Positions 7,180 to 9,141 of a stretch of 22,711 nucleotides of DNA are shown here, in pieces. Origin of the DNA: an uncultured archaeon (lineage in GTDB: Archaea; Iainarchaeota; Iainarchaeia; Iainarchaeales; 0-14-0-20-30-16); NCBI GenBank assembly GCA_964565125.1, contig CAZMCX010000004.1, positions 1 to 22,711 on the forward strand, given 5' to 3'. The notes under the pieces were generated by a model that saw only the letters and a list, made by a program, of their open reading frames with translations, did no database searches and was not told the origin of the DNA. The position numbers and the translations under genes are program-made. Positions within the stretch are counted from its first letter, which is position 1, and each line of letters starts with the position of its first letter.

Positions 7180-9141
7180 TTACTTTTTCGTTAATACTTT
7201 TAACTCTTTATCCGTTTCTTCTTGCACCTTTGCTATCAGATCCTTTCTAAATTCTGGCTTAAACAAGTGGGCATAAAGCTTGTGTGATTTAAGGTACTCT
7301 TCAACAGGCAAAACTTGCTTTGGTTTGTAAGTTATTTTGTATTTCCCGTTCTCTATTTCATACAAAGGCCAGAAGTTTGTCTCTGTTGCAAGCCTAGCAA
7401 CATCATAAGTCTTAAAGCTTGGGAACTTCCACCCATAATTACAAGGCATCAGAACGCTCAAGAATTTTGGGCCTTCATAACTAAAGGCTTTCTTTATTTT
7501 ATAGATAAAATCATCCAAATATGCTGGGTTTGCTTGTGCAGCATAAGGTATATTATGCGCTGCCACAATAGGCATTATGTCTTTTCTTTTCTGGGCTTTT
7601 CCAGAGCTAACTGTCCCCGCAGGAGTAGTAGTTGTACTTGCCAAGTAAGGAGTTGATCCACTTCTTTGGCCGCCCGTGTTCGAGTAGGCTGCATTGTCAT
7701 ATAGCACATACAAAATATCGTGTCCTCTTTCAAGCATTCCTGACAAAGCTTGTAAACCTATGTCAACACTATTCATATTCAAACTTATTCGTCCATCTTT
7801 TTCAATAATTAATATATGGTTCTTTTTTAATTCAGGACAAAAAACCTTTCCGTTATATTTATATGAAGAAATATTTTTTCGTCTGAGATTTGCTAACATA
7901 GTTGGTTTATAATTGCTTGCAGAAATAGAATATTCTAATCTTCCTTTTCTTTTATTTTCATCAAGATGAACTCTATAGCCTAATTTTAATGCAATTTCTA
8001 TAAAATCATTTTTCAATTTTTCTGAGATTGTACTATACCTATAAATCTTGGAGTTTTTGTAATCATCTATGTGCCCATCGCCCAGGATTAAAGAATCAAA
8101 TAAAAACTTAAGTTGTTTAGGGGGCAAGTTTTTGAATTCTTTTGGTATAAATTTGTCTTTGGCTTTCCCAAACTGTTTTAAATAACTCCATAACTGTTGA
8201 TTACTAATAATAAACCTATCTTTACTATACCAAAAATTAAAAGGCAATTTTGATAAACAAGCCTTTATTTTATCCACATTTTTTTTATTAGTTTGAGCTA
8301 TATAAACACCATATTTTTCTCTTTTAATAGATCTCTGCGATATATGCCCCTCAGAAATCCAATACCCAAAAAATTCCAACCAATTAGCCATTAATATTTT
8401 TTTAAACGGTTTTTTGTTAGCACTAATCTTATGATAAGAAACAGACGGAACTTCAAAATAGTTTTTATTCTTCCCCGCCCAGTTCAGGTTTCCAGTAATA
8501 ATATTAATCTTATCGCTTCGGCCATAATCAAGTAAACTATTTGCCTTAATAATATCCACTTTTTTTGTAAATTTATTATAAACAGGAACATTATGATTTA
8601 AAGAAACATCAAAATGAACAAAATTGTGATTTACTTTAACTATTAAATTATTATAATCAACGATATGCATTTTGATAACTGGAACAGGCTCTATATTCAA
8701 AGTTACAGGATTTACTGAAAATATTTTGTCCCCAATTTTTAAATCTTCTACATTTTTTAGTCCTTCTTCAGTCAATATTTTTGTTTGTGGAACATAACAA
8801 CCACCATCACCTGCAAAAACAACGAACTTGTACTTCTTTTTCAACTCTCCACGCTTTTGCCTTGCTACATACGCCCTCTCTACCCCCGCAAGGGTTGATG
8901 CGGAGTTTTCAAAGGCATTATGTATACACGAAACCCCAAAGCTTGTGTGTGGCCAAATTGTACTAGTAACTTCCAAGCACCCGGTAGCAATAGATACCAC
9001 AGGTTCATAGCCATCAGGCACATTGCCCAAAACAGTTCTAACTATTGGAGGTATAAAGCACCCTGAACAGGTCCTATGCCCTGGACCAAAACCCTCTTTT
9101 CCTTTTTCCCAAATTTTCTGTAAATCATATTTTTCGGCCAT
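7180..9141 (-). CDS. porB: 2-oxoacid (pyruvate-type):ferredoxin oxidoreductase beta subunit (ThDP-binding), interrupted by an intein
   Basis: Extein motifs [16 protein letters not shown]...[29 protein letters not shown]. Last gene of a gamma-delta-alpha-beta operon. The track start is TTG 9159. ATG 9141 is preceded by AAAGTGATTTTT. Extein length is about 310 aa once the 343-aa insert is removed. Confidence 0.9.
   Translation of the reverse strand: [653 protein letters not shown]
7771..8799 (-). mobile_element. Intein with LAGLIDADG homing-endonuclease domain (343 aa) inside the beta subunit
   Basis: Starts with Cys (TGT 8799-8797) right after GDGG. Ends ...SLNMN (AAT 7773-7771), followed by Ser +1 (AGT 7770-7768). 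Contains SLNH (block-B-like), [13 protein letters not shown] and [12 protein letters not shown] (two LAGLIDADG motifs) and [14 protein letters not shown] (block-F-like). Confidence 0.85.

Follow-up and report, generated by a model that had tools for sequence, protein, structure and literature searches.

A predicted class 1 intein with a LAGLIDADG homing endonuclease in the thiamine diphosphate-binding motif of an archaeal PorB-type oxidoreductase

The interrupted porB gene

The window analyzed here, the whole stretch of 22,711 nucleotides from contig CAZMCX010000004.1 (assembly GCA_964565125.1) of an uncultured archaeon of the Iainarchaeota, carries a porB gene (7180..9141, minus strand; 653 amino acids [aa] plus stop) interrupted by a predicted intein. 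The gene encodes the beta subunit of a four-subunit pyruvate/2-oxoacid:ferredoxin oxidoreductase (POR). The insert (7771..8799, minus strand) is 343 aa long, runs from Cys1 to Asn343 (CYVPQTK...ISLNMN) and lies in the thiamine diphosphate (ThDP)-binding motif at GDGG/S, where the slash marks the insertion point; this position is called site a. With a probability of about 0.9, the insert is a genuine class 1 intein with a double-motif LAGLIDADG homing endonuclease in a DPANN porB, self-splicing and spread by homing.

The N-extein (8800..9141, minus strand; 114 aa) ends in ...FVVFAGDGG and contains conserved cysteines (CSGC and TGC) and the GDG with which the ThDP-binding motif opens. The C-extein (7180..7770, minus strand; 196 aa plus stop) begins with Ser+1 (AGT, 7770-7768) and supplies the remainder of the motif and of PorB. 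Between them, Cys1 is encoded by TGT (8799-8797) and Asn343 by AAT (7773-7771), and within the window the GC content of the intein is 27%, compared to 39-43% in the exteins. The listed open reading frame (ORF; 7180..9159, minus strand) is intact and, read from a TTG further upstream, counts 659 aa; translation probably begins at the ATG at 9141, giving 653 aa as in database protein P0026, which is 100% identical. The 90%-identity cluster of this protein holds five members from several sources, all of 653-654 aa, annotated only as "hypothetical protein [Candidatus Diapherotrites archaeon]". An assembly chimera was ruled out by this five-member cluster and by the recurrence of the architecture on independent contigs.

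After in silico removal of the intein, PorB has 310 aa and matches the NCBIfam PorB model (NF008819) without a break at model positions 11-296 of 300 (329.8 bits). It aligns across the junction with the POR beta chain 9bt4_C (E=7e-71; CxxC, TGC, and PC aligned) and also matches the oxalate oxidoreductase beta chain 5c4i_C (E=2e-62), and in the PDB alignments the junction GDGG/SVDIG pairs with GDGS-TMDIG and GDGG-AVDIG. In 9bt4_C numbering, the insertion falls between residues 100 and 101, two residues past the GDG Asp. The spliced protein matches Pfam TPP_enzyme_C over profile positions 18-151 (E=8e-17), the precursor only over 61-151 (E=4e-12). Judged by the NCBIfam and PDB matches, the exteins are highly conserved. 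The sequence-only reading, which had proposed a 343-aa insert at 8799..7771 in an overlong beta-subunit ORF and a ThDP-binding motif rejoined by its removal, was borne out on both counts, with exact junction codons and uninterrupted matches of the spliced protein to NCBIfam, Pfam, and PDB references.

The porB gene is the last of a gamma-delta-alpha-beta (porGDAB) operon, and the same layout was found at loci L001, with an intein-free porB, and L003, with an interrupted one. Upstream of porB lie porA (9156..10295, minus strand) for the alpha subunit with POR_N (PF01855) and PFOR_II (PF17147) domains, putative porD (10298..10576, minus strand), and porG (10704..11246, minus strand) for the gamma subunit with the Pfam POR domain (PF01558). 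The putative porD, a small ferredoxin-like delta subunit of 92 aa, was assigned from its position and Cys motifs (CKGCGICANY and YCPE); it had no Pfam match at E<=1e-3, and the equivalent gene in L003 has Fer4 matches. It shows a single clear CxxCxxC motif plus a separate CP and may represent a delta subunit that is divergent or has a single cluster.

Motifs and fold of the insert

The elements of a class 1 intein were located along the insert. The N-terminal half of the Hint domain (8440..8799, minus strand; about aa 1-120, with an approximate boundary taken from the secondary structure of the model) includes blocks A and B, the latter reading SLNH with Ser66 at 8604-8602 and His69 at 8595-8593. 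The LAGLIDADG homing endonuclease domain (7912..8403, minus strand; about aa 133-296, boundaries approximate) retains the acidic residues of both motifs, Glu150 at 8352-8350 and Asp241 at 8079-8077. The C-terminal part of the Hint domain (7771..7902, minus strand; about aa 300-343) includes block F, with Cys321 at position F:4 (7839-7837) and His328 at about position 13 (7818-7816), and block G, which reads SLNMN with Met342 at 7776-7774 before Asn343. Cys1, SLNH, the two LAGLIDADG motifs, block F, the terminal Asn, and Ser+1 thus all lie where the sequence-only reading had placed them.

Residue conservation was read from an alignment of 38 relatives. Cys1, His69, Gly151, Asp241, and Asn343 are invariant in 38/38 sequences, and conservation reaches at least 90% for Glu150 and Cys321. 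Block B follows [ST]xxH throughout, with SxxH in the subclade of the window and TxxH in the others, and the relatives end in N-[M/G]-N followed by Ser, Thr, or Cys.

The endonuclease was recognized directly by Pfam LAGLIDADG_3 (42.8 bits; cutoff, 22.5), and an AlphaFold2 model built on the same alignment reached a mean pLDDT of 92.6 and a pTM of 0.92. In the model, beta-rich N- and C-terminal parts surround a helix-strand domain of LAGLIDADG type at aa 137-295. The top Foldseek match was the TliVMA intein 7qsu (E=1.2e-17), followed by PI-SceI, PI-TkoII, PhoVMA, and PI-PfuI (down to E=1e-11). Domains consisting of Hint only (hedgehog 1at0, BIL 2lwy, and the Prp8 intein) scored E=1e-4 to 1e-3, and the free LAGLIDADG enzymes I-DmoI, I-SceI, and I-OnuI were matched as well.

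The window intein shares with TliVMA and PhoVMA (7qsu and 7qst), PI-SceI (1vde), PI-PfuI (1dq3), and PI-TkoII (2cw7) a Hint domain split by a double-motif LAGLIDADG endonuclease, and with solved class 1 inteins also Cys1, the block-B His, the terminal Asn, and a +1 nucleophile, at a Foldseek TM of about 0.6. It differs from the solved inteins in sequence (10-15% identity), in having a penultimate Met instead of His and Cys instead of Asp at F:4, and in length, being with 343 aa shorter than the matched structures (about 360-540 aa). Its host is a ThDP-dependent metabolic enzyme, whereas the solved inteins interrupt an ATPase, a polymerase, or a ribonucleotide reductase.

Several results weigh against the intein reading. 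On the window intein, the Pfam profiles Hint_2 (E=1e-3), PT-HINT, and Hint stayed below their cutoffs and Intein_splicing (PF14890) gave no match; NCBIfam gave no intein match, just a faint one to the intein region of a DnaB model. In a PDB sequence search with the intein alone, the best match was the bacterial intein-like (BIL) domain 2lwy (E=1.3e-3), covering aa 2-53 only, and a profile of eight close inteins again gave 2lwy as its sole significant and weak match (E of about 1e-3), with the TliVMA intein at E=0.14. On the host side, the 329.8 bits of the spliced protein fall short of the NCBIfam equivalog cutoff for PorB (405 bits), and a VorB-like subfamily model scored 277 bits; pyruvate or another 2-oxoacid may thus be the substrate, and judged from sequence the safe name is PorB-type 2-oxoacid:ferredoxin oxidoreductase.

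Because the Hint and Intein_splicing profiles remained below cutoff and the PDB sequence matches were weak, the identity of the intein is based on its fold, the placement of its motifs, and comparison with relatives. The predicted fold, through the structure search, settles that identity where sequence alone could not. Of the profile search suggested beforehand, the LAGLIDADG part held and the Hint part was subthreshold, the intein match coming from the fold. A BIL domain was also considered. BIL domains are Hint domains that occur in variable regions of nonconserved proteins and usually lack a +1 nucleophile or an endonuclease. This candidate was ruled out, since the element sits in an invariant motif, is followed by Ser at +1, and contains an endonuclease, and since the match to 2lwy is confined to its first part.

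Alleles, insertion sites, and mobility

A search with the whole precursor added 17 PorBs whose inteins sit precisely at GDGG/S, all of the form C1...N[MG]N/S or T and 338-353 aa long; with such recurrence in independent proteins, the architecture is not due to chance. The word-indexed search with the intein alone retrieved a single PorB relative (fragment P0001) and RNase HII inteins, missing the 16 other site-a PorB inteins, and would wrongly have suggested near-uniqueness. The intein-free PorBs closest to the spliced extein (P0150, 83% identical; P0151, 76%; P0152, 73%) read GDGGTVDIG without a break, so that both the contiguous homologs and the occupied alleles looked for at the outset were found. 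P0150 belongs to the porGDAB arrangement of locus L001, and its DNA equals the spliced junction of the window at 71/90 positions. In L001, the empty allele reads GGGGATGGGGGT before and ACTGTAGATATAGG after the insertion point, also given as ...GCAGGGGATGGGGGT and ACTGTAGATATAGGTTTACAAGC..., respectively.

The +1 residue follows occupancy, being Ser in 17/18 occupied and Thr in 119/120 empty alleles (Fisher p=7e-21). A preference of the intein for a Ser nucleophile and co-conversion of the flanking extein during homing are both possible sources of this bias. Seven other PorBs without a site-a intein (P0070, P0108, P0109, P0114, P0121, P0128, and P0132) read GDGGS[FY]DIG, the flank typical of occupied alleles, and may carry footprints of precise intein loss.

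Mapping of all long PorB homologs onto the extein placed insertions at three sites within about 30 residues, all in or beside the ThDP-binding motif. Site a is occupied in at least 18 protein clusters, site b (YMN/TG) in at least 75, and site c (YV/CYDN) in 2 (P0086 and P0136), the last with inteins of about 560 aa and Cys at +1. Inteins at site b have the canonical ...VVHN/T end and comprise full-length forms of 366-372 aa and mini-inteins of 153-224 aa (related proteins in P0042-P0141). They share with the window intein the host protein and the region of the ThDP-binding motif, lying about 30 residues downstream, and can co-occur with site-a inteins; they differ as a separate lineage that matches Pfam Intein_splicing, includes mini-inteins, and is far commoner. 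Double occupancy was observed for sites a and b (P0029, P0041, P0044, and L006) and for sites c and b (P0136). In the window, sites b (YSN/TG, near 7675-7680) and c (YV/LYDN, near 7702-7707) are empty, and Leu stands where site c needs a Cys nucleophile. The three sites together account for more than 90 PorB clusters with inteins in public metagenomes, with source names including Woesearchaeota, Nanoarchaeota, Diapherotrites/Iainarchaeum, Omnitrophota, and unclassified bacteria. Some site-b proteins are labeled "POR beta subunit/intein/homing endonuclease" by the JGI pipeline, and site-a proteins are labeled just PorB or "hypothetical".

Intein and extein relationships were discordant. The inteins of P0027-32 and P0035 share 60-73% identity with that of the window, but their exteins are only 43-54% identical to those of the window and rank below more than 100 intein-free PorBs in this respect. 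Among occupied PorBs, those with the nearest exteins (P0033/34, 74-76% identical) have an intein just 36% identical to that of the window. At the DNA level, the window and L003 share 73% identity in the intein and 58-62% in the exteins, and the intein has 27% GC in both hosts, compared to 39-46% in the exteins. To explain how the window differs from the P0027-35 group in this respect, at least one horizontal transfer is required. For these pairs, intein dS was lower than extein dS and the Nei-Gojobori dN/dS of the intein was approximately 0.13-0.25, values that are rough with dS near saturation, which again counts against the reading; they indicate purifying selection. From these comparisons, horizontal transfer by homing is supported, with an endonuclease active now or recently, and the intein is probably still mobile.

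Among the alternatives, an intein that is now only vertically inherited, with a dead endonuclease, as a fixed immobile element is unlikely, although it deserves to be taken seriously. Intein and extein divergences in the L004-L006 group are similar, which on sequence is consistent with vertical inheritance of the intein within that group. The site-b mini-inteins show that endonuclease loss occurs in PorB inteins, and P0029 (locus L005), whose PorB also has a site-b intein, carries Lys in place of the first LAGLIDADG acid (WISKGH compared to WISEGH), so that the endonuclease is possibly inactivated in this doubly occupied allele. Against immobility, the window copy keeps Glu150 and Asp241, its endonuclease region is conserved and confidently modeled, and the discordance with P0027-35 calls for horizontal transfer.

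Relatives of this intein were found far outside PorB. An exhaustive phmmer search of 1.84 billion representatives returned 256 clusters at E<=1e-30 and 3243 at E<=1e-10, the subclade of the window being represented by one full-length sequence (P0030) and fragment P0001. Among 64 sampled members, the hosts were DNA N6/N4 methyltransferases, RNase HII, carbamoyltransferases, phage portal and terminase proteins, radical-SAM/B12 enzymes, sugar epimerases, papain-like proteases, RNA ligase, MCM, and glutamate synthase. This host promiscuity makes a metabolic host less surprising. The metagenomic inteins of RNase HII, methyltransferases, phage proteins, and the other hosts, which carry no annotation as inteins, are 29-40% identical to the window intein over the full 343 aa and share Cys1, TxxH, the F:4 Cys, a ...G-N/S or C end, and the LAGLIDADG motifs; they differ in hosts and sites, and the subclade of the window has a penultimate Met instead of Gly and a block-B Ser instead of Thr. 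Three loci from Chloroflexi metagenome-assembled genomes (L007-L009; match 3001-3837) hold relatives with 27-29% identity that split the T/SPPY catalytic motif of DNA methyltransferases, and many proteins of the wider family carry 2-6 copies. The subclade of the window occurs in 3/185,579 GTDB species representatives, always at PorB site a, a number so small that its taxonomic range is poorly sampled.

Splicing route, genomic setting, and significance

In the proposed mechanism, the precursor, with the intein two residues past the GDG Asp, would presumably be unable to bind the cofactor or assemble correctly. Splicing would start with an N-S acyl shift at Cys1, followed by the attack of Ser+1 on the thioester to give a branched intermediate. 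Cyclization of Asn343, probably aided by the block-F His328 as the penultimate His is absent, would free the intein, and an O-N shift would yield mature PorB (GDGG-SVDIG) with restored ThDP/Mg2+ binding. The freed intein or its endonuclease domain would then cut an intein-free porB at GDGG/T, repair would copy the intein in, and by such homing it would pass horizontally between PorB genes that are only distant relatives.

Eight PorB inteins have Met before the terminal Asn, the remaining PorB inteins and those of RNase HII have Gly, and none has His. The Met noticed beforehand in place of His was thus confirmed as a residue, but it is not peculiar to the window; with Met or Gly there in every relative, it is a lineage trait rather than a sign of decay. 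Inteins without the penultimate His do splice, according to Chen, Benner & Perler 2000 as cited in PMC4031507. From sequence, the absent penultimate His and the block-B Ser for Thr could nevertheless slow splicing, a further point on the opposing side. These two substitutions and the subthreshold Pfam Hint scores are also what speaks for an intein that has decayed into a relic unable to splice, or for an insertion domain kept permanently in the protein, with porB as a pseudogene or an insert-tolerant enzyme. This explanation is very improbable, as the 659-codon frame is intact, Cys1, Asn343, and Ser+1 are all present and conserved, the penultimate Met/Gly is common to the whole lineage including the RNase HII inteins, dN/dS is well under 1, and the exteins are still highly conserved. 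A retained domain of 343 aa so close to the GDG Asp would, moreover, be hard to square with cofactor binding.

Least credible is a class 3-like route with Cys321 instead of Cys1 as the first nucleophile and a block-F branched intermediate, which draws on the conserved F:4 Cys of the family (at least 90%), the absent penultimate His, and Thr at G:5 in some RNase HII relatives, but is rejected because Cys1 is invariant (38/38 aligned sequences, with at least 90% conservation across a further 64 members of the family) and the WCT triplet is absent (Val at B:12, Cys at F:4, and Asn at G:5 in the window intein), class 3 inteins having no N-terminal nucleophile (PMC4031507) and a Trp(B:12)-Cys(F:4)-Thr(G:5) triplet (PMC4031507, PMC6195587), and Cys being merely the second commonest F:4 residue in ordinary inteins (PMC4031507). 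The Cys1-initiated class 1 pathway is the one retained here.

Other features of the window include an archaeal rRNA operon. Inside the large subunit rRNA gene (12533-15772), a group I intron was detected at 13575-13835 (minus strand; RF00028, 94.9 bits, E=1e-23, full model), about 260 nucleotides (nt) long and without an endonuclease ORF; the first report of group I introns in archaeal rRNA dates from 2018 (PMC6125680). Two kinds of self-splicing element, intein and group I intron, thus lie within 6 kb of this genome. The 16S-23S spacer holds an intron-containing tRNA of 165 nt (15885-16049, minus strand; Rfam tRNA, 52 bits), which is missed by ARAGORN with default settings and called tRNA-Thr(TGT) with a 92-nt intron in intron mode. 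The G3:U70 acceptor pair and the spacer location suggest a tRNA-Ala with a misplaced intron call.

Adjoining the rRNA operon, a gene at 17874-18929 (minus strand) encodes a 351-aa protein with a GGDEF diguanylate cyclase domain (E=4e-39). Cyclases for c-di-GMP are uncommon in archaea, and the gene may be a bacterial acquisition. An AbiEii-type nucleotidyltransferase toxin (4259-4993, minus strand; PF08843, E=1.5e-24) is adjoined upstream by a 196-aa ORF without a Pfam match (4994-5584, minus strand), which could be the cognate AbiEi-like antitoxin. Directly downstream of porB, at 6482-7047 and 5863-6414 (both minus strand), there are three ORFs of 100-183 aa without Pfam matches; those at 6482-6811 and 6745-7047 overlap in different frames, so that at least one start or gene call is doubtful.

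Surveys of inteins emphasize a strong bias to ATPases of replication, repair, and nucleotide metabolism. In a 2016 survey (PMC4760082), replication and repair account for 61.5-66.9% of intein-bearing proteins, nucleotide metabolism is also favored, and COG category C (energy production and conversion) hardly appears; its main text contains neither "pyruvate" nor "ferredoxin". Full-text searches returned no paper in which a POR or PorB intein is described, the candidates naming both terms separately, and other literature or InBase may hold one. The initial remark that POR-type enzymes stand outside the classical intein hosts agrees with this literature but needs qualification, since PorB is not an unheard-of host among the clusters described above, some already labeled by JGI. 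The intein is an ordinary one; its host and sites are new to the searched papers, yet plentiful in databases.

A further idea, drawn by analogy and rated a long shot, is that the intein acts as a redox-gated switch, in which oxidation would form a Cys1-Cys321 or Cys1-Cys181 disulfide, stall splicing, and keep POR inert until anoxia, and that the three independent sites reflect such selection and not just a conserved DNA target. The redox-responsive class 3 intein DnaBi1 of M. smegmatis forms a disulfide between its catalytic Cys118 and Cys48 (PMC6195587). The window intein likewise has the F:4 Cys in the center of the active site beside other Cys, in a host that would gain from oxidation sensing; DnaBi1 differs in being class 3 and lacking an N-terminal nucleophile, and its likeness to the PorB intein is speculative. 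If true, a redox-gated intein would be more than a selfish passenger, controlling the maturation of the oxygen-labile POR.

For the biology of these organisms, the findings mark a central, oxygen-sensitive enzyme of carbon and ferredoxin metabolism as a hotspot of intein insertion in DPANN archaea and also in some uncultured bacteria, and extend the rule of inteins in cofactor-binding loops from P-loops to ThDP sites. As the genes are annotated "hypothetical protein" or over-long, metabolic reconstructions of DPANN archaea may miscall POR. The PorB inteins are candidates for new LAGLIDADG specificities and for a splicing chemistry that proceeds without the penultimate His (Met/Gly) and with Ser+1, and the occupied, empty, and double-occupied alleles provide a natural system for homing and intein competition.

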